Source of the DNA: a virus
Taxonomy: Duplodnaviria; Heunggongvirae; Uroviricota; Caudoviricetes
Length of the DNA: 41,816 nt
Virus record (IMG/VR): IMGVR_UViG_2636416136_000011
Direction: 5' to 3' (one strand)
Numbering within the stretch: position 1 is the stretch's first letter; the number at the start of each line of letters is the position of its first letter. The notes under the pieces were generated by a model that saw only the letters and a program-made list of their open reading frames with translations, was not told the DNA's origin and ran no database searches. Of the stretch, positions 5,030-39,750 are shown piece by piece. A program made the translations under genes and the position numbers.

Positions 5030-5382
5030 TACGCCTCCGATGTAACAGTCGTTATTCCATAAAGAGTGTCGATTTCAGCGGAAAACATGACACGTCGGGT
5101 CGTGGTATCCAGCGTCGTATTGAAAGAGAGGATTGATTTAACGCCCTGCGTTTCGAGGATGCGCTTACGGATCGCCAGGTTGTAGGTTTCCGGCTTCTGC
5201 TTACCGAGTACGGACTGGATCCACGGAGTCCCCTCGGTGGTGTCGAGAAACCATTGCCCATACCACAATTCGAATCGCGTTTTTACCGCCTGCGCCACGG
5301 CCTCCGGTGAGTTAATCAGCCAGGTGTCATCACCGCTGCCAAAGGTGTAATCGCCATCGGCGTCTTCACGTCTGTATCGCAT
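5029..5382 (-). CDS. Baseplate wedge protein (gpW/gp25-like)
   Basis: 117 aa, translationally coupled between the spike and J-like genes. Confidence 0.45.
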   Translation of the reverse strand: MRYRREDADGDYTFGSGDDTWLINSPEAVAQAVKTRFELWYGQWFLDTTEGTPWIQSVLGKQKPETYNLAIRKRILETQGVKSILSFNTTLDTTTRRVMFSAEIDTLYGITTVTSEA

Positions 5383-6134
5383 CAGTTTACCCCGTCGGTA
5401 CTGCTTTCACCGCGCTGAACACCACCATGAGTGTGCGTATCATCGATTGGCTTGCCGTTAGCCTTCACGCCCCCCAAAAACTCAACAGCACCAGTGATTT
5501 TTGAAGCCACACCAGAAACCACAGACCCCACCATGCCCCCCATCCAGGTTAACAGGCCATGAATGGTTACTTTCTCAGAAAAATCAGCCAGGGGGGCAAC
5601 CACATCAAGACCACCTGGAGCGACAATTTTAATTTTCCTGGTATCAGGATTAAGCTCAAAATAGGTGCTGCCGTCATCACTACGCAACTGTGTGGCACTG
5701 GTATTAATACCGCTAATCTTCCTTGCCTGCGACTGGGGACCGACAATACAAAACGCATCCGATAAATCATGCATTCTGTCATCGACCGACTCCTGTATCC
5801 CGCCACTCTGCCACCAGAAATCAATACAACGATCGGCAAAAATCACCAAACATTCATCACCGGCTTTAACTGGGAACGTTAGCGTACATCCTCCGCCGCG
5901 CGGGAATACCACTGGCACATCCACCAGCAATGGGTAATTTTTGGTAATGCGGTTGCCGTCATTATCCTTTTCAACCGAACGGATAGCAGGCTGCACAACT
6001 GCCGTCACCGCATCAGGATCGAATGACTGAATAATGCCAGGCAAGGCGACACGGATCTGGTTCTTTGTTGTTTCCCGTTCAGATTTGAATGTTTCGGCAA
6101 GGTCGCCGCTGCGGGTCTGGTCAGATACTGCCAT
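5382..6134 (-). CDS. Baseplate spike / assembly protein V-like
   Basis: 250 aa, first gene of the V-W-J-I block; glycine-rich C-terminal extension. Confidence 0.55.
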   Translation of the reverse strand: MAVSDQTRSGDLAETFKSERETTKNQIRVALPGIIQSFDPDAVTAVVQPAIRSVEKDNDGNRITKNYPLLVDVPVVFPRGGGCTLTFPVKAGDECLVIFADRCIDFWWQSGGIQESVDDRMHDLSDAFCIVGPQSQARKISGINTSATQLRSDDGSTYFELNPDTRKIKIVAPGGLDVVAPLADFSEKVTIHGLLTWMGGMVGSVVSGVASKITGAVEFLGGVKANGKPIDDTHTHGGVQRGESSTDGVN

Positions 6135-6152
6135 TTAGTAGGCTCCAGAAAG

Positions 6153-6175
6153 CAAAAAACCCGCCGAAGCGGGTT
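6153..6175 (-). terminator. Rho-independent terminator closing the two-gene moron
   Basis: Minus strand reads AAACCCGC-TTCG-GCGGGTTT followed by TTTTTGC, just 3' of the 6194 stop and before the baseplate spike start. Confidence 0.65.
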
Positions 6176-6193
6176 TGATAACGTTAATTTTAT

Positions 6194-6589
6194 TCATGAA
6201 ACTCTAGCAGACTTTAGCTGTTCCCAGCGCTCAAAATAGAGTTCAGCAGCCTCGATTGCATCCTGTCCCATCTCTTTCGAAACAGTCACATTCGTCAGAT
6301 CATAGTCAGCTTCATTTCTAGCATCCCGCCACTGGCGAAGTACGAAAGCTAGGGATTTCAGTGTATTTGTCGGGTATGGCTCTGATTTGCACTCTGAGGG
6401 CGTTGACATATAACCCACAGTATTTTTGTGATGCTCATGGGTAAAATGCGGTATGGCAGTAAGTGAGCTAATAGACTCATGTAACATACTGTAATACGCC
6501 CTTGAGATAGCGCTTCGAAATCCACTCTCAATATTTTCAGACAGACATAATCGAGCGGTATCGAGAATCTGATTGCTAGTTACCGACAT
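6194..6589 (-). CDS. HEPN-like domain protein (candidate toxin/defence effector), moron gene 2
   Basis: 131 aa; motifs RAYYSMLHE (R-x6-H) and RDARNEADYD (R-x-x-A-D-Y) resemble classical HEPN signatures; A+T-rich; 14-bp overlap with the upstream gene. Confidence 0.5.
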   Translation of the reverse strand: MSVTSNQILDTARLCLSENIESGFRSAISRAYYSMLHESISSLTAIPHFTHEHHKNTVGYMSTPSECKSEPYPTNTLKSLAFVLRQWRDARNEADYDLTNVTVSKEMGQDAIEAAELYFERWEQLKSARVS

Positions 6590-7349
6590 GGTAGCTCACC
6601 CCCGTATGCAACTGACGCGGAGAGGTAAATCTAGCTAACAGGGAACAATCATCCAGTTTAGATTCAGCGCAGACTCTATCAGCCAAGTCGAAGTTCATTT
6701 TGGCAATAGTTTTAGGCTCAAGATTTTTAATATCAACAACATAGCAACCGCTTCCACTAAGCTGAACGAAACCTGTCGTAGCCTTGTATTCACTTAGCAA
6801 GCCCCAGATTATGGATGCTAAGGTCTGGAACTGTTCCTTCGAGCACTGTGTGGCGCTATAGAAATTATCCATTTCTGCAAGGAGTTCTTCTTTGTGCTTC
6901 ATAGCATTACTCCTGCCTTCTGATTCAGAAAGAAGCTTAATGTGCTCTTCCATATAAAATTTTAACTGTTCACGCTCGCCGCAACGGTACGCCCAACTGT
7001 ATGCGTTGTGACTAAAGAGTTTTGTCCGATACTTCTTTGCCAGCGGGACATAGACATCCTTGAGTTCATTATAGCTAAATGTATTAATTAAAATGTGATG
7101 ATAGTGCATTGCCAACGTTACATCGTTTACTTCTAGGCTTATCCTGAGATAACGTAACGCGCTTTCAATCTTTCCGGTTATTGCATCCAGATAAGATAGT
7201 GCAATGTTGGTAGCAGGCGTTGGAGAGACAGAAAGTTCCTCTCGAATTTTCTTTTCAGTGAAGGGATCTAAACTTTCCCTATCCAATAGAAGCGCATTGA
7301 ATTGTTCAATATATTTTTGCGCTTTTTCTAATGGGATGCCTGCCGCCAT
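6576..7349 (-). CDS. Hypothetical protein, moron gene 1 (partner of the HEPN-like protein)
   Basis: 257 aa, no motif recognised; A+T-rich; separated from the upstream gene by a 95-bp gap. Confidence 0.5.
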   Translation of the reverse strand: MAAGIPLEKAQKYIEQFNALLLDRESLDPFTEKKIREELSVSPTPATNIALSYLDAITGKIESALRYLRISLEVNDVTLAMHYHHILINTFSYNELKDVYVPLAKKYRTKLFSHNAYSWAYRCGEREQLKFYMEEHIKLLSESEGRSNAMKHKEELLAEMDNFYSATQCSKEQFQTLASIIWGLLSEYKATTGFVQLSGSGCYVVDIKNLEPKTIAKMNFDLADRVCAESKLDDCSLLARFTSPRQLHTGVSYHVGN

Positions 7350-24875: not shown

Positions 24876-25217
24876 TTATCTTACCTTGATGCCTGATGCC
24901 GTCAGATGTTTACGACAGTCCTGAATACCTTCGTTATAACCCGCATCGTAGAAGCTATCCGGCTTTGCCTTCAGCGCAGGAAGCGTAACGCTGGTAGCTC
25001 TTCGTTCGGCCAGAACACCTGCCTGAAAGAGTGTCCACATCAACTGAACTGCTGAATCACAGTAAGTAACATCTTCACTGTACAATTCTCGTTCAATCCT
25101 GATGCCAAGTTGAGCCTTCATTGATGCGCTAATATTACCTTTGACCTGCAACGACAGGTCTGGGTACCTCTGTTCCATGAAGCTTTCAAATCTGTTGCGA
25201 ACGCTGATCAGAGCCAT
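24876..25217 (-). CDS. Hypothetical protein between Q and the lysis cassette
   Basis: 113 aa, no motif recognised; 31 bp downstream of Q. Confidence 0.5.
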   Translation of the reverse strand: MALISVRNRFESFMEQRYPDLSLQVKGNISASMKAQLGIRIERELYSEDVTYCDSAVQLMWTLFQAGVLAERRATSVTLPALKAKPDSFYDAGYNEGIQDCRKHLTASGIKVR

Positions 25218-25248
25218 CTGGTTCCCTTACGTGATTGATTGCTGGATA

Positions 25249-25671
25249 TTATGCCGCCGAGCAGCTCCTACGCAAAGTCCTGATAGCCTGAGGCTTTGAC
25301 TGAACCGACTGATCCATTTCGAGCACCACATCCAGCATGGCTAAGCAACCGTCAATAAATCCCTCTGCCGCCTGAAGCCTCTTCAGAACGTGGGTGTGAG
25401 ATACGCCGAGCTTCTCACCCATCGCCCGCACGGGCATGGCCTGGACGTAATGCCACTCAAGGAGCGTGCACAGATACGGATCTTTTTTCTTCAGGCAGCT
25501 CATAGCGGAGTTGATGATAAGACCGTCATTGTCACTGCATTTCAGCCTTCCAGACTGCGTCGCGGGTAGCAGATTCTTAAACCCGGCTGCAACAGGAGGA
25601 AAGTAGACACTACCACCTTCACTCGCTGCCCAGCCACCCCAGCGCTCTAAAACCTGTTGAATATTACGCAT
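25249..25671 (-). CDS. Q-like late-gene antitermination protein
   Basis: 140 aa with HTH-like segment MGEKLGVSHTHVLKRL; directly upstream of the late leader and lysis genes. Confidence 0.55.
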   Translation of the reverse strand: MRNIQQVLERWGGWAASEGGSVYFPPVAAGFKNLLPATQSGRLKCSDNDGLIINSAMSCLKKKDPYLCTLLEWHYVQAMPVRAMGEKLGVSHTHVLKRLQAAEGFIDGCLAMLDVVLEMDQSVQSKPQAIRTLRRSCSAA

Positions 25672-25800
25672 AGCTCTGACCTCTACGTTTTGCTACGAAA
25701 AAATTTTCTGAGAACCACGTTTGTTTATCCGTGGGTGTGGATAACGCAGTTCCGATTCGCTTATTACACGCTGTTATGTGCAAAAAATTCCTTGTTCGGC

Positions 25801-25981
25801 CTGTACCAACCTGTACCCACCTGTACCAGCTCTTTTCAAACCTTTTCCCCAAGCGACTTATATATATATATGGGGTTCTTAGTAATTAGGTTGGTACAGA
25901 TGGTACAGTTGGTACTGGCCTTTAAATTCAATTAGTTAAAATGTACCAACCTCTATTTTGAGGTTGGTACAGGTTGGGACA
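25801..25981. repeat. Iteron-like array of CTGTACC/GGTACAG motifs (candidate replication origin or regulator-binding array)
   Basis: Three tandem 10-bp units at 25801..25830, (TA)6 at about 25859..25870, three inverted units at 25889..25918, a perfect 12-bp inverted repeat TGTACCAACCTC-TATTTT-GAGGTTGGTACA at 25942..25971, and a degenerate copy at 25972..25981. Confidence 0.6.
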
Positions 25982-28145
25982 CCGCCTCAAAAATTCGAGT
26001 CATTTTCCCCCCAATTCGCCTTTGGGCACGCTTATACCCGCAATTTTGCAAAACATTACTAATTCGCATTTCTTCGCGTTTTCCGATGCGGTCAGGATTT
26101 AGCCCAATCGCATCACGCAAAACATCACTTGCGCGTAAAAATTCGCAATTTCGCGGAAGTTCATTAGTCATCAGGTCTGGCGTGTCGAGCCATTTCTCTA
26201 CCGTTTCAAGCCAAGCATCCTTGATGGTGTACTGTTCATGGACACTCGCTGCCAGTTGTTCAGCCTCACGGAACTGGATACCCCCCAGACGCTGAAACAC
26301 CTCACGAGCCTCAGCCCAAAGTAAAAGGAGATCTCTTTTTATCGCTTTCACGTCGACTTTCGACACTTCCACGGGGAGCCAGCGACGGTTACCAGTCTTG
26401 TCCGCAAGGAATTCGTCCTCATTGGTGGTACCAACGAACACCAGGCGACGAGGAAACTGGGTGGCGAACTCCCGGTATTTCGGGATCCAGTTTTCGTGAG
26501 TACGCGTCACAAACGCTTTGATTGACTCCAGCTCTTTGGTATTAAGTCCGCGCAGTTCACCAATCTCTGCCACCAGCCGACCACGCATTTTTCGAGCGAG
26601 ATCATCGTCTTTTTCGGCAAAAGAGATTTCAGTAAAAAACGCAGGATCAGGGCTCAGTGCCTCCACTCCGGAAGACTTACCGCAGCCCTGCGGACCAACG
26701 AGGATCGGCACCATATCCGCTTTGATGCCTGGCTCCAGTACTCGCCCCGCCAACGCGGTCCACATGTACATAGACACCGCACGGGTATAAGGCGTGTCGG
26801 CGGTACCGAAGTGCGTATGGTAGAAACATTCGATGCGCGGCACGCCATCCCACTCCAGTCCGTTCAGCCAAGTGATCGCTGAATCGAATGGTTGTTCATC
26901 GGCTGCAAGTAACACCACATCGCGAATAAGTTCACGACCAACAGGTTTAAATCCCCGCTTTTCCATCGTGATGCGCAGGCGCGCATAATCCGCATCGGTG
27001 AATGCCCGCCATTGTCCGGATCCTGCAGGGGCAAACATGATTTCGTCGCGGAACTGGTCAAAGCGAATATCGATGTCCACAAAATCAGGGCGTACTACTG
27101 CTTTGGCTGCGTTGCTGATTGTTGCCTCGATACGCCCCCATTTATCACGCTCGAAAGCAGGCAGCGGTAAAGGTTCCGCCACTTCGGTGCTGGTCAGATC
27201 TTCGAAATCGTCGTTGCGGATCCCGATGGCATTAAGGAAATCTCCGTCATCACGATGCGCACAACTGGCATGCAGGCATTTAAAATGCCCCTGCTCAAAG
27301 CCCGCGGTTCCCGCAGGAAAATAAACTGTGCTTGTTGGATCGCCCCCGCTACTGTGGCCGTCTTCAAACGGACAGCGGATATATCGTTCACCATTTGCGC
27401 CATCCAGCAGCGTCCAGCCATTGGCATCAAGATATTCAGCTGTATCATCCGTCGCGCCGGGCGTGAATGCTGATCGGTCGCGCATCTTCGTGTTGCCCGC
27501 TTCGGTGGTTACCGACACAGGGAGTTGTTCAGCCAGGCGCTGCCACAGCGTTTCAAGCTGCTCACCAGTAATAGCCGGAGGTTCATCCGGCAAACCGCCG
27601 TCCCATTCAATACGCGCGCCGCTGCTGTGCGTACCGCAGGCAACGAACTGCTGCCCGTTCGCCAGCAACTCGATAATGCCCATATCCCCCGCCAGGCGAT
27701 GGATACGCTTACGGAAATCACCATCAACGGCCAGCAGATACAGACACTTATTACTGTTTGCTCGCCAGCGTCGCGGCGGCAACTCACCCAGAAGTTGCAC
27801 AAGCGTTTTGCGAATATCTGCCTGAATGTCTTCATCTTCGCTATCACAGTCCAGCGCCAGCCAGCCATGGCCTGTACGCACGCAGATGCCATAATCCGGT
27901 TCATTCGACCAGCGGGCAAAATCATGCTCAGTAACAACATGCCCGGTCCATTGAGCAATACCGGTGACCTGGCGGTCCCGGTTATAGCGACTCGGCGTCT
28001 TACCCAACGCTTTCAGTTTACTATCAGGGGATATGGTCGCACTGGGGTTACATACAACTGGGAGAAGATGATCAGTTCTCCCCAATACCAGGTCGAAATG
28101 AAACCACTCATCAGGCGTAGCTCCCCATGGTTTGCTATCGGACAT
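25953..28145 (-). CDS. Primase-helicase (prim-pol domain, zinc ribbon, P4-alpha/VirE-like P-loop NTPase)
   Basis: LALDCDSED and CGTHSSG prim-pol-like motifs, Cys/His cluster (CPFEDGH...CLHASCAH), Walker A VGPQGCGKSS and Walker B-like RLVFVGTTNE. Confidence 0.75.
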   Translation of the reverse strand: MSDSKPWGATPDEWFHFDLVLGRTDHLLPVVCNPSATISPDSKLKALGKTPSRYNRDRQVTGIAQWTGHVVTEHDFARWSNEPDYGICVRTGHGWLALDCDSEDEDIQADIRKTLVQLLGELPPRRWRANSNKCLYLLAVDGDFRKRIHRLAGDMGIIELLANGQQFVACGTHSSGARIEWDGGLPDEPPAITGEQLETLWQRLAEQLPVSVTTEAGNTKMRDRSAFTPGATDDTAEYLDANGWTLLDGANGERYIRCPFEDGHSSGGDPTSTVYFPAGTAGFEQGHFKCLHASCAHRDDGDFLNAIGIRNDDFEDLTSTEVAEPLPLPAFERDKWGRIEATISNAAKAVVRPDFVDIDIRFDQFRDEIMFAPAGSGQWRAFTDADYARLRITMEKRGFKPVGRELIRDVVLLAADEQPFDSAITWLNGLEWDGVPRIECFYHTHFGTADTPYTRAVSMYMWTALAGRVLEPGIKADMVPILVGPQGCGKSSGVEALSPDPAFFTEISFAEKDDDLARKMRGRLVAEIGELRGLNTKELESIKAFVTRTHENWIPKYREFATQFPRRLVFVGTTNEDEFLADKTGNRRWLPVEVSKVDVKAIKRDLLLLWAEAREVFQRLGGIQFREAEQLAASVHEQYTIKDAWLETVEKWLDTPDLMTNELPRNCEFLRASDVLRDAIGLNPDRIGKREEMRISNVLQNCGYKRAQRRIGGKMTRIFEAVSQPVPTSK

Positions 28146-28148
28146 GGG

Positions 28149-28361
28149 TTAAGCCTTTTTATCGTTTTGTGAGCCATACAACAGCCAATTAGGGTCGCAA
28201 TCCAATGCTATAGACATTTCAAGAAGATAACGTGGCCGAGCAATAACACCACTTTCAATTCTGTTTATTGCCTGCTGGCTCACTCCTGTGAGCTCAGCCA
28301 ACGTAACTTGCGTCATTTTGAGTTCTTTACGTCGTTCTTTTACTCGGGTCGCTAAGGTCAT
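28149..28361 (-). CDS. Cro-like HTH regulator
   Basis: HTH motif MTQVTLAELTGVSQQAINRIE; start set at ATG 28361 with GAGGTG upstream (the listed ORF begins at an upstream TTG); divergent from the repressor gene. Confidence 0.6.
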   Translation of the reverse strand: MTLATRVKERRKELKMTQVTLAELTGVSQQAINRIESGVIARPRYLLEMSIALDCDPNWLLYGSQNDKKA

Positions 28362-28388
28362 TGCTTTCACCTCATACAATTTTAGTGG

Positions 28389-28441
28389 TATTTAGCAACA
28401 ACAAACGAGGTTTGTCAAATACAACAAAAATTGTTTTTAAT
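28389..28441. promoter_or_regulatory. Genetic switch: back-to-back promoters with a 15-bp palindromic operator
   Basis: Minus strand TTGACA(28413..28418)-18 bp-TAAATA(28389..28394) toward cro; plus strand TTGTCA(28412..28417)-18 bp-TTTAAT(28436..28441) toward the repressor; palindrome ACAAACGAGGTTTGT at 28401..28415. Confidence 0.45.
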
Positions 28442-28481
28442 GTGGGGATACACATTAATACAACCCAGAAGGACTAATCCC

Positions 28482-29105
28482 ATGTCTCTCGCAGCCCGTT
28501 TTAAAGCACGTCGTTTGGAATTAGGAATGACTCAAGTGGAAGTAGCGAATTCTGCAGGGGTTAGCCAACAATCCATAGAATCCATCGAAAGTGGACGAAC
28601 CAGAAAGCCACGCAATCTTCTGGATCTGGCTAAGGCCTTGAAATGTAGCCCAGACTGGCTACTGAACGGTAAAAATATTATGCCTCTCGCGGAGATAAGT
28701 ACCAGACGCATACCTATATTAAGTTACGTTCAGGCAGGAGAGCTTACAGAAGCAAGAGACATAACAGATCTGACAGGGGAATTTGAATATATTTTGGCAG
28801 ACTCTGACATTCCAGAAACATGCTTCGCATTACGTATCGATGGCGACAGCATGCAACCAGAGTTTAAAGAAGGAGACATTGTTATCATCGATCCTGATCT
28901 ATGTCCTGCACCAGGGGAGTTTGTTGTCGCCAAAAACGACGGTCACGAAGCTACATTTAAAAAATACCGTCCATTAGGAATCGGCATCGACGACTTTGAA
29001 TTAATCCCCCTAAATCCTGATTACCCTATTTTTCGTAGTGCAGATATGAACTTACAGATCATAGGTGTAATGATCGAACACCGTATTTACCGCCGTAAAC
29101 GTTAG
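28482..29105 (+). CDS. CI-like repressor, HTH plus S24 LexA-type autopeptidase domain
   Basis: N-terminal HTH (MTQVEVANSAGVSQQSIESIE), Ala-Gly at VQAGE, catalytic Ser in GDSMQPEF and downstream Lys; start at MSLAARF with AGAAGGA upstream. Confidence 0.85.
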   Translation: MSLAARFKARRLELGMTQVEVANSAGVSQQSIESIESGRTRKPRNLLDLAKALKCSPDWLLNGKNIMPLAEISTRRIPILSYVQAGELTEARDITDLTGEFEYILADSDIPETCFALRIDGDSMQPEFKEGDIVIIDPDLCPAPGEFVVAKNDGHEATFKKYRPLGIGIDDFELIPLNPDYPIFRSADMNLQIIGVMIEHRIYRRKR

Positions 29106-29738: not shown

Positions 29739-29888
29739 ATGAAACCTGAACACATCCATCGACTGACGGGGCGCGATGTTCTCCGTTATCGCCGTAAAAA
29801 CTTCGATTTGATGACCGGTCTGGCCGTTGCCACTGCGCTCGGTCTGATCATCACTTTCATTCTCCTTGTAGCGAGGACCACAGTATGA
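29739..29888 (+). CDS. Small membrane protein
   Basis: C-terminal TM helix LAVATALGLIITFILLV; AGGAA eight nt before ATG 29739; coupled to the next gene. Confidence 0.4.
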   Translation: MKPEHIHRLTGRDVLRYRRKNFDLMTGLAVATALGLIITFILLVARTTV

Positions 29889-30787
29889 GTTTAGAAACCA
29901 GTCTAGAACTTAATAATCAACTTCTGGCACAACATAATGCGCTGCTTGAACGTCTTATCCGCACAATGGCATCAGGCATTGTTATGCATCCTGACACGAT
30001 TTCACGAGTGCAGGAATGTCGGGATACAGCAACTGAAACTGAAAATATGTCAGCGGCAATGACACTGGATGATCTGGAGTTCAGCGACGTTATCGCACTG
30101 GCTGGTTTCTACCCGGTAGCCACCCCTATCACAGAAGACATGCTGCAACGTGCTGTTGCCTACCGTGATGCTGAAGGCGATAAACGAGTTGTTCAGATTG
30201 ATGCTCTCGACAGCGCATTGCAGGGCGTCAAACGAGCCAGGGCGCTGCTTAAACCTGCTCTCCTGGACCTGTCCCGTAACATCCTTAAGTTCTGGGACGA
30301 CCTGCCAACCATCGGCGAGCGACGTGCTTTTGCCGAGCAGCTACTTGATGCACCTGCAGATGGGCGTGATGAAGTTAAGCCGAAAAAGGCCAGTAACAAA
30401 GATGGAGAACGCACGGGGCCGTTTTACGTCAAAAATGTATCCGGCACAGCAGCCAGTGAACTCCATACCTTACGCAAGTTGAACGAGATGCTTAAAAAAG
30501 GCCATATCGAGATCAACCGTGTTGAGTACCTTCAGCTGCAGGAAGAATTTGCACGCAGAGACGCAGCAAATTCCAGCCAGAATAATGACGCCAAAGATGA
30601 CCATACAATTGATTTCGCGGCACTACGCAAACAAGCTGAAGGGTTGATCCTCCAGTTAGCAAAAGGGGGTTACCGGGCAGAAGCTATTGCAATTCTGGAA
30701 AAACAGGGAGCCAGGAAACTTGGTGAAGTAACGGATGAAAATCTCGCTGAAGTAATCACCCTGGCTGAAAAAGCACTGGAGGGTTAA
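29885..30787 (+). CDS. Hypothetical protein, first large gene of the replication operon
   Basis: 300 aa, no motif recognised; coupled to the downstream nuclease gene. Confidence 0.5.
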
Positions 30788-30789
30788 TC

Positions 30790-32091
30790 ATGCCAGACGT
30801 TCATGCACAACTTTCTCCATCATCAGCGCATCGATGGATGCGCTGCCCAGGAAGTCTGGCGCTGGAGGCCACACAACCGGATAAAGAAACAACTTTTGCA
30901 ATCGAGGGCACTGCAGCGCATGCACTTGCCGAAAAGGTGCTGCGCAACCGCCAGAGCCACCCGGAGCACTATGCAGGTTGCAACGTCGCGATGTTCCTTG
31001 GATCCTATCCTCTTGCTGAGCACCCGGATGATACTTCCGGCCCGCAGGTAGATGAGGAAATGGTCGAAGCCGTTGGTCGTTACGTCGACACTGTTTGGGC
31101 GCTGGCGCAGGGCAATGAGCTGCTGGTCGAGCAGCGTGTCGACTTCTCCCATATAACGGGTGTGGAAGAATCTTTCGGAACTGCCGACAGCATAATCATT
31201 GCTGGTAGCGAATTACAAATCCACGACCTGAAATATGGCAAAGGCGTCCGCATTGATGCAGAACAAAATGAGCAACTACAACTGTATGCTCTGGGTGCGC
31301 TCGAACAATTCAGCATGCTGTATGACTTTGAGACTGTAAGATTATTTATTCACCAGCCGCGGCTTAACCACGTTTCAGAGTGGGCTCTGACGGTGGAAGA
31401 GCTCCAGGCGTTCGGTGAACGGGCACAGGAGGCCGCAACCAGTGCGATCCTTGTTCTCAATATTGCTGAATGCGAAGGCATTGAGACACTACCGCTGGAA
31501 AACTTCATACCTGGAGAAAAACAGTGCCGCTTCTGTAAAGCAAAAGCTATTTGCACTGCCCAGAAAATGCAGCATTTACAAACAGCGGCCAGCGACTTTG
31601 AAGATCTGACAAAGCCTGTCAGCGAAATAATCACCAATGCCAGCGCACGTGTACCTCTGTTAACCATTGAGCAGCTTGCGGAGATCTATAGCCAGACCGA
31701 CTTTATTGAGTCCTGGCTAAAGGCAGTACGGGACCGGGTTCACAATGAACTCAATGCCGGACATCCGGTACCGGGGTTTAAACTGGTAACAGGAAAACAA
31801 GGTAACCGGGCCTGGAGTGATGAAGAGGCAGCTCGCGCACTTCTGAAGGACCAGTTCAGGTACAAAACTGAAGAAGTATTCGACTTTAAACTTATTAGTC
31901 CCACAAAAGCCGAAAAACTTATCAAAAAGGCCAGTCCGCGCCGTTGGTCAAAAGTCGAGGCACTGATAACACGAGCTGATGGTAAACCCACCGTCGTTCC
32001 CGAGTCAGACCCACGCCCCGCACTCAATATCAACCCTGTAAATGATTTCGACGACGTATCCGACGATACGCTAACCGCAGACCTCATCTGA
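30790..32091 (+). CDS. PD-(D/E)XK nuclease, Cas4/RecB-like (DUF2800-type) with Fe-S cysteine cluster
   Basis: N-terminal Cys (RWMRCPGS), IHDLKYGKG and EQLQLYALG motifs, C-terminal [10 protein letters not shown]. Confidence 0.7.
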
Positions 32092-32106
32092 TTTAAGGAA
32101 ATCCCC

Positions 32107-32655
32107 ATGAAACTGAAGCTGAACAATGTTCGTCTGGCCTTCCCGTCTCTGTTTGAAGCTAAAACTGTAAACGGCGAAGGCGATCCGCGTTTCTCCGCAG
32201 TATTTTTAATGTCTCCCAAACACCCACAACTGGAAGAAATCCGTAAAGCTATGAAGCAGGTAGCGAAGGAAAAATGGGGGGAGAAGTGGGAGTCCATTTA
32301 TAACCAGCTGGAGAAAAAACTCAATCTGTGCCTGCATGATGGTGATGAAAAAGCAGAGTATGAAGGCTTTCCCGGCAATTTCTTCCTGAACGCTGCTAAC
32401 AAAGCGCGCCCAGCTGTTCTTGATCGCGATCGTTCGCCACTAATTCAGGCTGATGGACGTCCCTATGCAGGGTGCTATGTAAACGCCGTTATCGATATCT
32501 GGGCACAGGACAATAATTTCGGTAAACGCATTAATGCCTCACTCGGCGGAGTCCAGTTCCTGCGAGACGGCGATGCATTCGCTGGCGGCGGAGTGGCAAG
32601 CGCTGACGATTTCGACGATATCAGCGAAGGTGCTGATGCTGAAGCACTAATTTAA
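32107..32655 (+). CDS. DUF2815-like protein (putative ssDNA-binding replication accessory)
   Basis: 182 aa, N-terminus MKLKLNNVRLAFPSLFEAK; sits between the DUF2800-like nuclease and the polymerase. Confidence 0.55.
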   Translation: MKLKLNNVRLAFPSLFEAKTVNGEGDPRFSAVFLMSPKHPQLEEIRKAMKQVAKEKWGEKWESIYNQLEKKLNLCLHDGDEKAEYEGFPGNFFLNAANKARPAVLDRDRSPLIQADGRPYAGCYVNAVIDIWAQDNNFGKRINASLGGVQFLRDGDAFAGGGVASADDFDDISEGADAEALI

Positions 32656-32665
32656 AAATATTCAT

Positions 32666-32686
32666 CCCCCAGCTGCGTGCTGGGGG
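32666..32686. other. Perfect 8-bp stem-loop CCCCCAGC-TGCGT-GCTGGGGG
   Basis: Seen directly in the intergenic DNA 11 bp after the DUF2815 stop; no clear U-tract. Confidence 0.35.
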
Positions 32687-32706
32687 ATCTCATGAGGGAA
32701 AGAATA

Positions 32707-33345
32707 ATGTCACAGCCCGTATTAACTAATTACCTTAAAACTCAAATCATCAATAACGCACTTGAGAAAGCGGGTATCCCCAAACGTAAATCAGCACTAC
32801 GAGCTGCTCGTGTTGAATGGGCCGAACGTGTTCGGCTTGCAGCTATCGGGGGCGTAGAGAAAGAAGCTGAAATATTAAAAAATATAAAAAAAATAGAAAC
32901 ACTGGTATCAAAATTCCCCGAAGCATTAAAAACCGCCAATAACATTATCAGGGAAGAGTGTTACATGTGTCTGAATCTGGCAGGTTCTCGGGTTACCGTC
33001 TATTTCAACGGTAACTACCGAGGATATGAATCAGGGTCACCAGACCATATTCACAAAATCGCGCCGGGGGAATTTACCCTTCTGGCAAATGACCCTCTAG
33101 TTACAGAGTTTTACGGGTTTGATACACTTTATGAGCAGATACAGAGCGATGAGTCAGACATTCGACAGAATGTCAGCGCTGCACTCAGTAAAGTGCGCAC
33201 AGTTAAGCGCCTGCTGGAAGAGTGGCCTGAAGCTAAAGAACTTCTGCCAGCCGATGCACCATCTGCTCCGCTTCCGCCAGCTATACGACGCGAAACTCTC
33301 AACGAAATGATCGGCCTCCCTTCTGACGAAGGGGTAGATGCTTAA
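32707..33345 (+). CDS. Hypothetical protein
   Basis: About 212 aa; start set at MSQPV with GAGGGAAAG upstream. Confidence 0.45.
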   Translation: MSQPVLTNYLKTQIINNALEKAGIPKRKSALRAARVEWAERVRLAAIGGVEKEAEILKNIKKIETLVSKFPEALKTANNIIREECYMCLNLAGSRVTVYFNGNYRGYESGSPDHIHKIAPGEFTLLANDPLVTEFYGFDTLYEQIQSDESDIRQNVSAALSKVRTVKRLLEEWPEAKELLPADAPSAPLPPAIRRETLNEMIGLPSDEGVDA

Positions 33346-33412
33346 TATTTCTTATAACAAAGGCTGGCTTAAGAAAATAGTTATCCAAACCAGCCTACCG
33401 CAATACTAAAAA

Positions 33413-33682
33413 TTAAAATTCATTGAATTTAAAAAGACATTTCCCTATTGGATTGCCATAGTCTCTACATACCGAAATGCTGTCCCATACAGGCTGAGCC
33501 AAACACCCAAGAAAGAACCCAATAAGCGCAAAAATTATAATTTTGGGAAGAACACGATCCTTAGGACCTTCTTCACGTTCGAGCCATGCGCCACCAGCCC
33601 GAACTATTCTCCCTAAAATATAAAGAATGGGGAAAGCAATAATACCTATCAATGAAAGTATTCCGATACCAAAGCTAAACAC
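33413..33682 (-). CDS. Small two-TM membrane protein, antisense to the replication operon (cargo candidate)
   Basis: 89 aa with two hydrophobic helices (IGILSLIGIIAFPILYIL and IIIFALIGFFLGCLA); A+T-rich local DNA. Confidence 0.5.
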   Translation of the reverse strand: MFSFGIGILSLIGIIAFPILYILGRIVRAGGAWLEREEGPKDRVLPKIIIFALIGFFLGCLAQPVWDSISVCRDYGNPIGKCLFKFNEF

Positions 33683-33738
33683 CGCCGTCTCCTTGTTTAT
33701 TTACACCTACATAACCATATATCACACAAGGTTATTTT

Positions 33739-35802
33739 ATGTCCAATATACTATGGGGTGACCTAGAAACCTATTGCGAAATCCCTATTACGAACGGTAC
33801 CCATGCGTATGCCGAAGGCGTTGAAGTGATGCTGTTCGCATGGGCTATCAACGACGAGCCCGTAAACGTGTGGGATATCACTGCCGGTGGTGGTATTCCA
33901 CACGGCTTATACGAAGCAATCGCAGCCCCTGAAACCCTGCTTTATTTTCATAACTCTCACTTCGACCGCACCGTCCTGCGTTATGCAATGCCGCGCCTGG
34001 CACCGCCAGTCGAACGTTGGCGCGACACAATGGTGCAGGCGCTGGCGCACGGTCTCCCGGGGTCTCTGGGGGAACTCTGCGAAGTACTAGGCGTCCCGCA
34101 AGACAAAGCGAAGGACAAAGAAGGTAAAGCGCTGATCCAGCTGTTCTGTAAGCCACGCCCGAAAAACAGCAAACTGCGCCGGGCCACCAGCAAAACCCAC
34201 CCGGAAGAATGGCGGCGCTTTGTTGCTTACGCCGGACTGGATATCGAGGCAATGCGCGAAGTCTATAAACGTCTGCCGAAGTGGAATTATCAGGGGACAG
34301 AACTGGCGCTCTGGCATCGTGATCAGCAGATCAACGACCGGGGCGTCTGCATGGACATTCAACTCGCGCGCGCTGCGATCGAAGCGGTAGACCAGGAGCA
34401 AAAGCGCCTGGCAAAGCGTACACAGGAAATGACTGATGGCGAAGTGCAGGCAGCAACACAACGGGACGCGTTGATTAAGCACATCGTTGAATCCTACGGT
34501 GTGGAGCTACCAGACATGCAACGCAGTACTCTGGAACGTCGTATAGCCGACCCCGATTTACCATCTGCCGTGAAAGAACTGCTGGCTATCCGCCTGCAGG
34601 CCAGTACTACCAGCACCAGTAAATACAAGGCACTGATGAAAGGCGTAAGCCACGACGGGCGCTTACGCGGTACGCTACAGTTCTGCGGGGCGTCACGTAC
34701 CGGTCGTTGGGCCGGACGGCTATTCCAGCCCCAGAACCTTCCCCGCCCTTCACTAAAACAGGAACAAATAGACGAAGGCATCGAAGCACTGAAAGCCGGA
34801 TGTGCAGACCTGCTGTTTGACAATATCATGGAACTAACCAGTTCAGCGTTACGTGGCTGCATTATCGCGCCAACAGGCAAAAAACTGGTGGTAAGTGACT
34901 TGTCGAACATTGAAGGCCGTATGCTGGCATGGCTGGCGGGAGAAGAATGGAAACTGAATGCATTCAGAGAGTACGACGCCGGAACGGGTCCGGACTTATA
35001 TAAACTGGCGTATGCAAAAGCTTTCGATATTGCACCAGATGATGTTGATAAACACATGCGTCAGATCGGTAAAGTCATGGAACTCGGTCTGGGTTATGGA
35101 GGTGGTGTATCGGCTTTCATCACTTTTGCTCTGGTTTACGGTCTCGATCTCGACGAGCTGGCGAACGCCGCACTGCCAAACATTCCCCGCGATGTTATCC
35201 GCGAGGCGAAAAGCTGGTACAACGAATCGGTTAAACGTAAGTCGACCTTTGGCCTGTCCGAGCGTGTATTCATCGCATGTGACTCGCTCAAGCGCCTGTG
35301 GCGCAGGGCGCACCCGGCGACCTGCGATTTCTGGTACGAACTGGAGCGCACCGTCCGCACTGCAATCGCCACACCGCAAAAAACATTGTATTGCGGTTAT
35401 CTTAAAATCCGCCGCGATGGCGCGTGGCTGCGCATACAGCTACCATCCGGACGCGCTGTATGCTACCCCTCTCCGGTTATCGAAAAAGGGAATATCACCT
35501 ATATGGGTGTTAACTCTTATTCGCGTAAATGGCAACGACTCAAAACCTACGGCGGAAAGCTGGTAGAGAACGTCACCCAGGCGGCCGCCCGCGACGTTCT
35601 GGCCGGAAACATGCCGCTTATCGAAGATGCCGGTTACAGCATTGTGCTGACGGTACACGACGAGGTGATCACCGAAGCACCTGACACAGAAGATTTCAAC
35701 GATAAAGCGCTTTCCGCGCTTCTCTCCACTAACCCCGAATGGGCGCCCGATATCCCACTGAACGCTGGCGGTTTTGAGGCGTACCACTACCGTAAGGATT
35801 AA
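33739..35802 (+). CDS. Family A DNA polymerase with N-terminal 3'-5' exonuclease domain
   Basis: Exo motif WGDLETY; polymerase motif [17 protein letters not shown], motif [17 protein letters not shown], motif C LTVHDEVI. Confidence 0.85.
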
Positions 35803-35807
35803 TCGCT

Positions 35808-36011
35808 ATGACTGTAATCAAAACGCATACCGGAACGGTTATTACCCGCACCGGTGAAAAGCAGGTGCAATTGCATCAAAACGCGACAACGTGGGTGGCT
35901 GGCCCAAAAGAGTATTACTACAAAGACACTGGCCGCCGCGGTGGTGCTGTCGGTGTCCGCACTCGTCTGGTGCTGAGCAGCATCCGCCCAATCGAAGCAA
36001 AGCAGGAGTAA
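35808..36011 (+). CDS. Hypothetical small protein
   Basis: 67 aa; AAGGA upstream of the ATG. Confidence 0.4.
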   Translation: MTVIKTHTGTVITRTGEKQVQLHQNATTWVAGPKEYYYKDTGRRGGAVGVRTRLVLSSIRPIEAKQE

Positions 36012-36016
36012 CCCCT

Positions 36017-36238
36017 ATGTCATTTAAATATCGGGACAGTCCGCTTTATTACCGGGCTGCGAGGGAGGCCTTGCGCCTTGAGCAGTCCGGCGAATATGAC
36101 CGGGCAGCGAAGGTCTGGGCCAAGGCTAACCGCCAGTCACGTAACGAACTGAATCAGGACTGGAGCGAACGCCGGTCTGATTTTTGTCTGATGCAGAACA
36201 TGCGCGAAAAGCGTAAGGCGGTGAGCGATGACTTGTGA
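36017..36238 (+). CDS. Hypothetical small protein
   Basis: 73 aa from ATG 36017 with GGAGTAA upstream (the listed ORF starts further upstream in the same frame). Confidence 0.4.
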   Translation: MSFKYRDSPLYYRAAREALRLEQSGEYDRAAKVWAKANRQSRNELNQDWSERRSDFCLMQNMREKRKAVSDDL

Positions 36239-36710
36239 GCAGACCATTCTTGACATGTGCTGCGGCTCTCGTATGTTTTGGTTCGACAAGGAGGACAAGC
36301 GCGCCGTGTTCAGTGATATCCGCGCCGAGCAGCATGAGCTTTGCGACGGTCGCCAGTTGGTTATAAGTCCGGACCTTATAGCTGATTTCCGCGCCCTTCC
36401 CTTTGCCGATAACACTTTCCCTGTCGTCGTTTTCGATCCGCCGCACCTCGAGCGCGTCGGCGATAACGCATGGATGAGGAAAAAGTACGGGCGGCTCAAC
36501 AAAGAAACATGGCGCGATGATCTTCGCGACGGCTTCGCCGAAGCATTCAGGGTATTGCGGCCCCACGGTGTACTCATATTCAAATGGAACGAAACGCAGA
36601 TCCCGGTAAGCAATATCTTGGCGCTGACCGACGAGAAGCCGGCCATATGGCAACGAACCGGAAAAGCCGACAAAACCCACTGGGTTATTTTCGTCAAAGG
36701 TGTGGAATGA
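36228..36710 (+). CDS. Small DNA methyltransferase (N6-adenine or N4-cytosine type, DPPH motif)
   Basis: Motif I-like ILDMCCGSRMFWF and motif IV VVFDPPH. Confidence 0.6.
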   Translation: MTCEQTILDMCCGSRMFWFDKEDKRAVFSDIRAEQHELCDGRQLVISPDLIADFRALPFADNTFPVVVFDPPHLERVGDNAWMRKKYGRLNKETWRDDLRDGFAEAFRVLRPHGVLIFKWNETQIPVSNILALTDEKPAIWQRTGKADKTHWVIFVKGVE

Positions 36711-37003
36711 TGGCCTACGAACGTGAAAGCCTTATCGAAAAGCACCTCGTCGCCGAAGTGAAAAAGGCTGGCGGGGTCGCCTTTAAGTTCGTGTCACCCG
36801 GTCGCCGCTCGGTACCGGATCGCATTGTCCTGCTACCCGGCGGTCGCATCGTCTTTGTCGAATGCAAAGCGCCAAGCAAACCACCACGGCCTGACCAGTT
36901 ACGCGAGCACGAACGGCTGCGCGCGTTGGGCTTTACCGTGGTGGTATTAGATAGCAAAAATCTGGAGGGGATATTGTGCGGGGAGCCTATTACAACGAAA
37001 TAG
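36707..37003 (+). CDS. VRR-NUC domain nuclease
   Basis: About 98 aa with PD-(D/E)XK-type core PDRIVLLPGGRIVFVECKAPS; start overlaps the methyltransferase stop. Confidence 0.6.
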   Translation: MMAYERESLIEKHLVAEVKKAGGVAFKFVSPGRRSVPDRIVLLPGGRIVFVECKAPSKPPRPDQLREHERLRALGFTVVVLDSKNLEGILCGEPITTK

Positions 37004-38004
37004 ACCCTAACGCAGCACAATGGCTGCGTAACCTTATTGCTGCAGGTCATATCGCCCCGGGTGAAGTTGATGAAAGGAGTATCGAAGATGTCGCACCAGA
37101 CGACTTGCGCGGATTCACACAGTGCCATTTCTTCGCCGGGATCGGCGTCTGGTCTTATGCTCTGCGTCTGGCCGGATGGCCGGATAACAAACCGGTCTGG
37201 ACAGGAAGTTGCCCGTGCCAGCCTTTCAGCTCGGCTGGTAAAGGCGCTGGGTTTGATGACGAGCGGCACCTATGGCCAGCACTATTCCACCTCATCAGCG
37301 AGCGACGCCCTAAGCTGGTATTTGGCGAACAGGTTGCGGGAGTCAATGCCTGGTTCGATCTTGTACAAACTGACGTGGAAGCAGTGGACTACGCCTTTGG
37401 GCTTGTCCCGTTTCCGGCTGCGGGCGTCGGTGCCCCGCATATCCGAGATAGAGCGTATTGGGTGGCCGACGCCAGCGGCGAGCGATCACAGCGGTGGCGA
37501 AAGCGCCTCAATAGCATTGAGGAAGATGTCTGGAGATCGTCGACCGTCCGGCAACACGCTACACAGCTCCCTGCGGAATTTTGCTCACCTAGCGGGGTGG
37601 TACACCCCAACCTGCAACACAAACCCACAGCCGGAGACAAAACGCGGTCTAGAAACCTTAGCGGGACTATCCAGATTAGCGGGATGGCCGACAGTGACGA
37701 CGATCGACAACAACCAAGTTCGTGCCGAGGGCGCAGCGGCCAATCATACCGAACGGGGAACGACCCTCGGCGGCGCTGCGAGAATCTGCGGCCCAATACG
37801 ATTAACGGCTGCTGGGATGGTGCTGACTGGCTCCTCTGCCGGGATGGTCGCTGGCGGCCAGTTGAATCCGGCACATGCCCGTTGGCTAATGGGATTACCT
37901 CCAGAGTGGGACGACTGCGCGCCTACGGCAACGCGATAGTCGCACCAGCTGCCGCAACATTCATCCGCTCGTTTATGGAATGCGCAGGATACGACCTTAT
38001 TTAA
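36976..38004 (+). CDS. DNA (cytosine-5) methyltransferase, Dcm-like
   Basis: Motif I FFAGIGVW, motif [15 protein letters not shown], motif VI FGEQV, motif [13 protein letters not shown] and C-terminal YGNAIV, all in one frame. Confidence 0.8.
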
Positions 38005-38321
38005 TGCCACTCACATCTGGCATGATACCGTCCAGAAGGTAATTGCTTATATACAACGGAGCCGCCCATGGCATAAGTATAAGCATGAAGTTTTGTCCAG
38101 AAGTCCCCATAAACTAGTATTGGGGCTAAAAATTTTGGATCGCTAACCATAGATGTAGCAGGAAGCTCGAAACCTTTAGAAAGAATGTTTACCAGTGAAG
38201 GGTAATTTTCAAAATCAGTGCTATTCCCGCCCACCTCTAAAGCATCCAGTTCAAAGTCGAGCACTCCACCATTTTTGTAATACTCCGGAACAGTTAACCC
38301 TGATGTTAACAAAGTAGCCAT
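38001..38321 (-). CDS. Hypothetical protein, antisense A+T-rich insert with strong RBS (cargo candidate)
   Basis: 106 aa; AGGAGG eight nt upstream of the ATG on the minus strand; no motif recognised. Confidence 0.5.
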   Translation of the reverse strand: MATLLTSGLTVPEYYKNGGVLDFELDALEVGGNSTDFENYPSLVNILSKGFELPATSMVSDPKFLAPILVYGDFWTKLHAYTYAMGGSVVYKQLPSGRYHARCEWH

Positions 38322-38355
38322 TAAACAATCCTCCTGAATTTTAAAGGGTTACATT

Positions 38356-39750
38356 ATGCCCAAAGTTTTCACGCCTCGCCCCTACCAAGATCTAATTATC
38401 AACCACGAAATCGACATTCACCGCTGCAACATCTGGGCAGGGATGGGGATGGGTAAAACCGTAGCGACACTCACCACGCTGGAAGATCTTTTCATGGCGG
38501 GCTCAGAGACACAGCCCGCGCTGGTCCTCGCGCCCCTACGCGTTGCAGCAAGCACATGGCCGGATGAAGCGCTGAAATGGGGGCATCTGCGCAATATCGA
38601 GGTGCAGCCGATTGTTGGTAACGCCAAAGCACGCTCTGCAGCGCTGGCGAACAGCAACGCGAGCGTGTTCACCATCAACTACGATAACCTTGTCTGGCTG
38701 GTTGAGGAATTGGGAGAACGATGGCCGTTCGGTACTGTCATTCCAGATGAAAGCACCCGGCTAAAATCCTTCCGGCTGCGAGGTGGTGGTAAGCGCGCGG
38801 CGGCGCTGGGCAAAGTGGCGCATAAGTATGTCCAGCGCTGGATAAATCTCACCGGTACGCCAGCACCGAACGGCCTGGTAGATTTGTGGGGACAATTGTG
38901 GTTTGTGGACCAGGGGCAACGTCTCGGGCGCACTTACGGCGCGTTTACCTCACGCTGGTTCAACTCGATACAGTTTCCGGGGCAGAGCTGGACCAAACTG
39001 GAGCCGTTTGCTCACTCACATGCTGAAATACAGCGAGCGTTAGCCGATGTGACCCTCTCGCTGGATGCGGCCGACTGGTTCGATATCAAAGACCCCATCC
39101 ATAACGTAATCCGCGTGGATATGCCGCCGAAGGCCCGTCAGCAGTATCGTGAAATGGAAAAGGAAATGTTCCTCGAGCTGAACGGCGAAGGCATCGAAGC
39201 ACCAAACGCCGCGGCAAAGACACTGAAGTGTCTGCAAATCGCCAGTGGCGCAGTATACACAGACGACACCGGAAGTTGGTCAGAACTGCATGACACCAAA
39301 CTACAAGCGCTGGACAGCATACTGACCGAAGCAGCTGGCGCACCTGTGCTGGTTGCTTATCACTGGAAACACGATCTTGAACGCTTGCTTAAAGCATTCC
39401 CTCGCGGTCGTCACCTCGACCAAGATCCACAGACACTGCGCGACTGGAATTCCGGAAAGATTCCTGTTCTCTTTGCACACCCAGCCAGCGCGGGCCACGG
39501 TCTGAACATGCAGGACGGCGGAAACATACTGGTATTTTTCTCACACTGGTGGGACCTGGAGCAGTATCAGCAAATTATTGAACGTATCGGCCCCACCAGG
39601 CAGATACAGGCCGGACACAATCGTCCGGTATTTATTCACCACATTATTGCGGCCGACACTATGGACGAAATGGTGATGGAGCGGCGCAACTCAAAACGAA
39701 CAGTGCAGGACATCCTGCTCGATGCCATGAAAAAGAGAGGTATAGCATGA
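38356..39750 (+). CDS. Superfamily-2 (SNF2/DEAD-like) helicase
   Basis: Walker A AGMGMGKTV, motif II VIPDEST, C-terminal helicase-like region (HPASAGHGLNMQ). Confidence 0.7.
   Translation: MPKVFTPRPYQDLIINHEIDIHRCNIWAGMGMGKTVATLTTLEDLFMAGSETQPALVLAPLRVAASTWPDEALKWGHLRNIEVQPIVGNAKARSAALANSNASVFTINYDNLVWLVEELGERWPFGTVIPDESTRLKSFRLRGGGKRAAALGKVAHKYVQRWINLTGTPAPNGLVDLWGQLWFVDQGQRLGRTYGAFTSRWFNSIQFPGQSWTKLEPFAHSHAEIQRALADVTLSLDAADWFDIKDPIHNVIRVDMPPKARQQYREMEKEMFLELNGEGIEAPNAAAKTLKCLQIASGAVYTDDTGSWSELHDTKLQALDSILTEAAGAPVLVAYHWKHDLERLLKAFPRGRHLDQDPQTLRDWNSGKIPVLFAHPASAGHGLNMQDGGNILVFFSHWWDLEQYQQIIERIGPTRQIQAGHNRPVFIHHIIAADTMDEMVMERRNSKRTVQDILLDAMKKRGIA

Follow-up and report, generated by a model that had tools for sequence, protein, structure and literature searches.

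A putative iteron-type replication origin at the primase-helicase gene of a temperate Escherichia coli phage

Here, we analyzed a 41,816-nucleotide stretch of viral DNA (IMG/VR record IMGVR_UViG_2636416136_000011; Caudoviricetes), referred to below as the window, which is an E. coli prophage adjoining yfhL. At positions 25800-25982, a dense array of short repeats (iterons) overlaps and follows the 3' end of a gene for a 730-amino-acid primase-helicase. On the basis of our comparisons, this segment is probably the replication origin of the temperate phage, with the protein encoded immediately upstream acting as its own initiator (rough probability 0.8). Sequence comparison is indicative of an initiator-origin pair like those of staphylococcal pathogenicity islands (SaPIs) and other phage-inducible chromosomal islands (PICIs), located here in a complete temperate phage, because the class of the iterons tracks one strand of the C-terminal wing of the protein rather than the protein backbone or the downstream flank. 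What could be established directly is the repeats and their layout, the homology of the helicase to SaPI Rep, the conservation of the layout, a constant core and the one-to-one co-variation of iterons and wing.

The repeat array and its conservation in relatives

The features of the array and of the adjoining genes are listed in Table 1. Each repeat element named in a preliminary description of this DNA, made from the sequence alone (tandem units, (TA)6 tract, inverted units, palindrome and a degenerate copy), could be recovered at its position. The proximal set consists of units at 25890-25898, 25899-25907 and 25908-25916, and the distal set is inverted relative to it, so that both sets face each other across the core. 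The arms of the palindrome hold iterons at 25942-25950 (plus strand) and 25963-25971 (minus strand), and the TAG stop codon of the primase-helicase open reading frame (ORF), at 25953-25955, falls within the loop and inner stem. The first copies thus coincide with the final codons and the stop codon of the gene, and the array reaches 153 bp past the stop.

Table 1 Positions of the array elements and adjoining coding features in the window
Feature	Position	Strand	Remarks
Antiterminator Q, outside the origin	25249..25671	-	Pfam Phage_antitermQ, E value 5e-42
CCTGTACCNN units, three	starts 25800, 25810, 25820	plus-strand reading	10-bp spacing
Distal iteron set, three copies	25802..25830	+	10-bp spacing; kept in all iteron classes
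Conserved core with (TA)6, 59 bp; proposed unwinding element	25831..25889		GC content 0.33-0.40
(TA)6/(AT)6 tract	25859-25871		within the core
Proximal iteron set, three head-to-tail copies pointing at the core	25890..25916	-	9-bp spacing
A+T-rich spacer, from palindromic pair to proximal set	25917..25941		TTTTAACTAATTGAATTTAAAGG on the primase-sense strand
Palindromic iteron pair, perfect 12-bp inverted repeat	25942..25971		arms 25942-25953 and 25960-25971; 6-nt loop
Iteron copy TGTCCCAAC, one mismatch	25973..25981	-	within the last primase codons
730-amino-acid primase-helicase, proposed origin-binding initiator	25953..28145	-	Pfam, PHROG and PDB matches
Codons of residues 672-721, predicted winged helix	25983..26132	-	
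Codons of residues 715-719 (MTRIF), second wing strand, co-varying with iteron class	25989..26003	-	

Such clustering is far beyond chance expectation. The iteron TGTACCAAC, allowing at most one mismatch, has 16 matches in the window, nine of which are located in 25802-25981, where the shuffled background rate predicts about 0.033 copies per 180 bp (Poisson probability of nine, ∼1e-19). The other seven are scattered singletons at the chance rate, and a second iteron cluster is absent from the 41.8-kb window. Similarly, CTGTACC occurs 12 times in the window compared with 2.57 ± 1.55 in shuffled sequences (0 of 100 shuffles reached 12), and half of the copies (6 of 12) sit inside the 180-bp array. 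A scan of the whole window against Rfam gave no family above threshold; hence, no known RNA accounts for the array region.

We compared 80 loci from IMG/VR and 24 loci of species-representative genomes, all encoding relatives of the 730-amino-acid protein at 37-100% identity. From GenBank, we included the records of APSE-1 and APSE-8, whose hosts are aphid symbionts, and those of Yersinia phage YeP4, Acidovorax phage ACF1 and Caulobacter phage Jess A. A search of these related phages for repeats after the primase gene recovered the array layout, with a repeat sequence that varies by class, behind the homologous gene in about 100 relatives, including E. coli prophages and APSE, Yersinia, Xenorhabdus, Gilliamella, Burkholderiales, Acidovorax and Caulobacter phages. 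The layout could still be recognized in a relative of 37% protein identity, and the exceptions among loci with downstream sequence are a few distant or degraded ones (for example, L094, L095 and L102). In the primase-sense direction, one or two iterons in or just past the last codons are joined by an inverted copy that makes a palindrome; a spacer, three head-to-tail iterons at exactly 9 bp, the (TA)n core and two or three inverted iterons follow. The 9-bp-spaced proximal triple could be found in all iteron classes, and the A+T-rich spacer is kept in many, not all, of them (alignment A3).

The sequence of the iterons themselves is not conserved. At least 14 classes could be distinguished, and all 6-10 copies of a locus share one class. 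These classes include TGTACCAAC, TGGAACCAC, TGTAACCAC, TGTTACCAC, TGTATCCAC, TGTCCCAAC and TGTCCCCAC, and further TAGACAACC, TAGACCACC, CGTAACAAC, TGAAGCCAC, TTTCTACAC and TGTCACCAC. In each unit, the pentamer at the 5' end is variable and the C-(A/C)-A-C after it is almost constant. The iterons of a locus all change in parallel around a core that stays constant across classes (alignment A3). On the primase-sense strand it reads ..TTACTAAGAACCCCA(TA)6AGTCGCTTGGGGAAAAGGTTTGAAAAG in the window, and the consensus across loci is ACTAAGAACCCCA(TA)5-6AGTCGnTTnGGGGAAAGGTTAGAAAA (alignment A3). An exact 18-nt piece of the core was found in 38 IMG/VR contigs, in 37 of which the C-terminus of a primase of this family ends 124-127 nt upstream on the same strand.

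Several other features of the core and its surroundings were noted. Arms of the form CCCCA…TGGGG flank the (TA)6 tract, and the core motif GGAAAGGTT is retained in a Burkholderiales relative (L089) at 51% protein identity. The primase-sense strand of the core also contains TTACTA-N17-TATAAG, a weak sigma-70-like arrangement that was rejected by the promoter scanner; no sigma-70-like promoter was detected in 25200-26300. The one other contig with this 18-nt match (L129, 5980-6060) was considered as a second initiator family using this core; it turned out to be unrelated, with a ParB-like gene downstream and no flanking iterons, and the match is most likely due to chance. A DnaA box was likewise examined as a part of the origin and rejected. 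The sole perfect consensus box of the window, TTATCCACA at 25736-25744 (minus strand), is located inside an inverted repeat, TTATCC-N8-GGATAA (25716-25745), 56 bp past the distal iterons and upstream of Q. Because it is confined to the flank class that carries this Q type and is missing from the other flank classes, it lies outside the conserved origin. Near-matches to the DnaA box were not enriched (12 versus 8.85 expected).

Co-variation of iteron class with the second wing strand

The protein is composed of an N-terminal primase-polymerase-like region, a VapE-type superfamily 3 (SF3) helicase and a C-terminal predicted winged helix. The VapE-like helicase domain was identified by Pfam (E value 2.3e-60), and PHROG matches were to DNA primases/helicases, the primase matches spanning residues 5-318. 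Close homologs match the Prim-Pol family PF09250, with D99, D101 and H173 invariant, as expected from sequence for a primase of the archaeo-eukaryotic type. Residues 393-657 are homologous to the helicase of SaPI5 PriRep (PDB 7pds; E value 8e-34), the sole relative with a solved structure. For the C-terminal domain, our statements rest on a model of the fragment 596-730, since the full-length AlphaFold2 model was too poor (predicted local distance difference test score, pLDDT, of 64). Over its C-terminal two-thirds the fragment model reached pLDDT 81-90 and shows three helices followed by a beta-hairpin, that is, a predicted winged-helix topology, with helices at 672-680 and 689-701 and a beta-hairpin wing formed by 704-711 and 714-721. 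The helix ahead of the wing (689-701) is nearly invariant within the family, and residues 715-719 make up the second wing strand.

It is this strand that follows the iterons. Among 71 non-identical loci, any given motif formed by the five residues behind a conserved Gly-Lys was associated with one iteron class, the sole departures being two artefacts of the repeat caller. Altogether, twenty second-strand motifs mapped to at least 14 iteron classes with no real cross-combination. For example, MTRIF, VTRIF and MVRIF occur with TGTACCAAC, KCKVW and KSKVW with TGGAACCAC, VQRVW with TGTAACCAC, LMKVW with TGTTACCAC, QQRVF with TAGACAACC and QIRVW with TAGACCACC. Neighboring segments behave otherwise: one and the same preceding wing strand, KRVQRRVD (the eight residues before Gly-Lys), pairs with six classes, the commonest downstream flank pairs with nine, and the iteron class of the window could be found beside several different downstream flanks and genes. 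As a measure of how well each segment predicts a shared iteron class, the area under the curve was 0.90 for the five residues after Gly-Lys, compared with 0.72 for the preceding wing strand, 0.64 for the 195-amino-acid backbone and 0.68 for the downstream flank.

In one pair of loci, the boundary is sharp. The window and locus L029 share 99.0% DNA identity over the 597 nt ahead of codon 715; for the seven codons that follow, the value drops to 38%. It is 56-65% for the iteron blocks, 76% for the core and 87% for the more distant flank. The same motif-iteron pairs also recur on backbones that are 73-79% identical (xTRIF with TGTACCAAC in Xenorhabdus, KCKVW with GGAACCAC in Photorhabdus). In these comparisons, wing strand and iterons behave like a single functional unit.

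It should be noted that a part of the protein co-varies with the array for a trivial reason. The tail …EAVSQPVPTSK (last 11 codons, 25956-25988) is translated from iteron copies, and in iteron classes with an in-frame stop (GTAACC, giving TAA) the protein is shorter by 8-16 residues. The length and sequence of the C-terminal tail are therefore by-products of the iteron class, and since the last 8-11 residues (…SQPVPTSK) are encoded by iterons, their co-variation is uninformative. The five co-varying residues 715-719, on the other hand, are encoded upstream of the first iteron.

Comparison with known systems and competing explanations

In SaPIs, Rep, which is sometimes fused to a primase, is a self-loading SF3 helicase whose C-terminal winged helix binds iterons; 6-12 short iterons are located directly 3' of rep, as two opposed sets around an AT-rich center, and both binding and melting of this origin by Rep proceed without ATP (PMC9371898). 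The origins of E. coli PICIs share this arrangement, and for EcCICFT073 a pri-rep-ori fragment is able to support replication of a plasmid (PMC6092414). This Rep-ori module (SaPI5 PriRep5, SaPIbov1 and EcCICFT073) is the closest known system, closer than phage P4. As in these islands, the proposed origin of the window begins directly 3' of the initiator gene; its nine iterons fall within the range of 6-12, with three on the minus and three on the plus strand facing across an AT-rich core; the initiator is a VapE-type SF3 helicase homologous to SaPI Rep; and initiator and origin seem to come as matched specificity pairs. Differences are also evident. The host element is a complete temperate phage of about 40 kb with structural, lysis and DNA polymerase genes and no helper-dependent satellite, the iterons are 9-mers compared with 5-6-mers in SaPIs, an extra palindromic iteron pair covers the stop codon, and the conserved 59-bp (TA)6 core is shared between specificity classes. 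Finally, the array, which by analogy would function as an origin here as well, is placed between the early operon and Q.

A role in gene expression was weighed as well. The array might mainly serve transcriptional control between the early operon and Q, the palindrome being a terminator or attenuator and a repeat-bound protein gating read-through or a promoter in the core. Indeed, the palindrome fits the pattern of an intrinsic terminator on the minus strand (12-bp stem, 6-nt loop and the tail TTTTAACTAA), the core contains the promoter-resembling motif described above, and Q, which has no sigma-70-like promoter in the gap, must be expressed across the array. However, the terminator scan returned one site where shuffled sequences give 1.0, and the T-rich tail follows the palindrome in just 8 of 17 iteron classes and is missing from the most abundant class, whereas 53 of 71 relatives retain the palindrome itself, with a stem of 9 bp or more. 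Moreover, the iteron class is coupled to the primase wing and uncoupled from the downstream flank and gene, and the layout matches a proven origin type, that of SaPIs and PICIs. We therefore consider this explanation unlikely; termination would be at most a local extra, and a gating role could exist alongside origin function. The free combination of iteron classes with downstream flanks and genes also speaks against the option, raised in the preliminary description, of a binding array for a late-gene regulator, which was not supported.

The same description drew a parallel with phage P4, which holds for position and fails for homology. In P4 (NC_001609), the cis replication region (crr, 4291-4590) is located 46 bp 3' of alpha (4636-6969, minus strand), whose product is primase, helicase and origin binder with a C-terminal DNA-binding domain, and short repeats in both orientations lie 3' of the gene. 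The window likewise has its repeat array right after the primase-helicase gene, with the additional feature that it overlaps the stop codon. In contrast, no sequence similarity to alpha could be observed (BLASTP E value 0.71), and the domains differ: zinc ribbon, Toprim, D5_N and Pox_D5 in alpha, Prim-Pol-like and VapE in the window protein, with a weak DUF5906 match in common. P4 uses the octamer TGTTCACC, which is found at both of the separate cis elements that it needs, ori and crr, whereas the window has one cluster of another repeat. Since the true ori of P4 is 4.5 kb away from crr, the array could by this precedent be an accessory cis site, with initiation at a separate origin elsewhere in the phage, and the APSE-8 record indeed places a putative origin in the gap between cI and cro. 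We regard this as less probable still, considering the lack of a second iteron cluster in the window, the conserved AT-rich core that the array itself has between opposed sets, as in the self-sufficient SaPI/PICI origins, the unrelatedness of the window protein to P4 alpha, and the fact that the APSE-8 annotation came from a skew program (originX) only.

The remaining explanation, that the repeats are operators of CI, Cro, Q or another regulator or functionless products of chance or slippage, is very improbable: short inverted and direct repeats are common in operator arrays and Q adjoins, but no motif copies are present in the cI-cro gap (28380-28430), the class is uncoupled from the Q-side flank, the probability of such a cluster by chance is that given above, and the concerted change of all 8-10 copies over at least 14 classes around a fixed core excludes neutral repeats.

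Several observations count against the origin reading itself. First, the sign of the GC skew changes at the cI/cro divergence near 29-30 kb and not at the array. This switch follows gene orientation and is hence uninformative on the position of the origin; it is probably also the reason why the origin of APSE-8 was annotated there. Second, the co-varying codons are only about 10-25 bp from the first iteron, and linkage therefore contributes to the co-variation. The downstream flank is equally near to the array and yet freely reassorted, so plain linkage does not account for it. Third, the co-variation gives no simple recognition rule. One candidate rule, in which Trp goes with CCAC and Phe/Tyr with CAAC, held for the IMG/VR classes and was rejected when APSE-8 was found to combine VCRVW with TGTACCAAC.

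Origins of other phages resemble the window in part. Like the lambda O/ori-lambda system, the window has iterons by an A+T-rich unwinding region in an early rightward operon. In lambda, related phages trade specificity modules and transcription crosses the origin, as would also be the case in the window. The lambda iterons are about 19 bp long and form part of the O gene. They are recognized by the N-terminal domain of O, a protein that is no helicase itself and relies on P to recruit host DnaB. In contrast, the window iterons lie at and past the 3' end of the gene, their reader would be a C-terminal domain, and the initiator is itself helicase and primase. In Streptococcus thermophilus phages of the Sfi21 type, compared here by description only, a non-coding repeat region with origin properties is found just 3' of a putative primase gene; the primase-helicase is VapE/P4-like and the phage a temperate siphophage, as a point of likeness, and the Gram-positive host is a difference.

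Genomic context, proposed mechanism and implications

Of 5426 complete E. coli genomes, 140-153 carry the region. The window spans the tail genes to the integrase and the host flank, and a complete phage gene set could be identified (terminase, portal, capsid, sheath, tube, baseplate, holin, endolysin, spanin, CI/Cro, Q, PolA and integrase). The gene order on the minus strand is a Cro-like helix-turn-helix protein (28149-28379), the 730-amino-acid protein, a 281-bp gap with the array, Q, holin, endolysin, spanin and small terminase; a CI-type repressor (28431-29105) is divergently transcribed. The neighbors initially named for the array, a primase-helicase ORF upstream and antiterminator Q downstream, were both confirmed by Pfam and PHROG. 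As the promoter scan of the gap found no sigma-70-like site, Q is probably expressed by read-through across the array. A plus-strand arm (∼29885-39270), divergent from the primase-helicase, contains a second replication and DNA-metabolism module (DUF2800, DUF2815, Nmad5, PolA-type DNA polymerase, VRR-NUC and a DEAD/DEAH (DEAD-box) helicase) together with the integrase; the Nmad5-family nucleotide-modification gene hints at modified DNA.

Some relatives showed additional features around the array. In the APSE phages, the array after the VapE gene is composed of TGTACCAACC in APSE-8 (L106; 5568-5668 and 2623-3074 for annotated origin and array) and CGTAACAACC in APSE-1 (L149, 2861-3082), and a hypothetical ORF of APSE-1, 'P4', which is annotated across the array, may be spurious. 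In the commonest flank class (37 loci, such as L068, L049, L047, L065 and L080), a conserved element of about 110 nt, non-coding, comes after the array at ∼170-330 nt past the primase stop (…TTGCGGGTAGCGATATGCAA…CTCGCGCGTGCGCGCGTTTTG, with the palindrome CGCGCGTGCGCGCG), and a gene beginning MPVVATFKTDWF takes the place of the window's Q. A similar GC-alternating palindrome is present within the core of a distant Symbiopectobacterium locus (L100).

Returning to the proposed origin, we suggest the following mechanism, in which binding, melting, self-loading and the division of labor between helix and wing are drawn by analogy from SaPI/PICI Rep-ori. The C-terminal winged helix of the primase-helicase would bind the 9-bp iterons, and protein assembled on the two facing triplets would melt the (TA)6 core that they enclose. 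Self-loading of the SF3 helicase might follow, the N-terminal primase-polymerase domain would prime, and the PolA-type polymerase of the phage would extend. The second wing strand, 715-719 (MTRIF), may read the variable 5' half of the iteron and so confer specificity, whereas the invariant recognition helix may read the near-constant 3' half (C-A/C-A-C). The original proposal of an iteron origin recognized by the C-terminal domain of the primase is thus supported, as far as sequence comparison goes, by the layout in about 100 relatives and the one-to-one co-variation of the wing. There is also a possibility that the origin-bound initiator gates read-through into Q and thereby couples late transcription to replication.

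More tentatively, wing residues 715-719 might be the direct and sufficient determinant of specificity, and the origin type described as "unique" to PICIs might be an ordinary phage origin taken by the satellites; we would not bet on this extended version, although it deserves mention. If true, about 15 nt of coding sequence and the adjacent iterons would make up a portable recognition cassette that has been exchanged through recombination to give no fewer than 14 orthogonal initiator-origin pairs.

The origin type as such is already known. What appears to be new is its occurrence in complete temperate phages, its presence in APSE and in isolated Yersinia, Acidovorax and Caulobacter phages, and the one-to-one relationship between iteron class and a five-residue wing strand. 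No account of these three points, or of the origin of an APSE/VapE phage, was found in the literature covered, which mostly left out subscription papers, so that an earlier account is possible. If our reading is correct, it would place the origin for a widespread family of enterobacterial prophages and identify the same feature in the APSE phages, which infect aphid symbionts and are of ecological importance. An origin with opposed iteron sets around an AT core would then serve complete temperate phages from three proteobacterial classes (alpha, beta and gamma), and the at least 14 natural wing/iteron pairs on a near-identical backbone would provide a data set for how winged helices read DNA and for orthogonal replicons.
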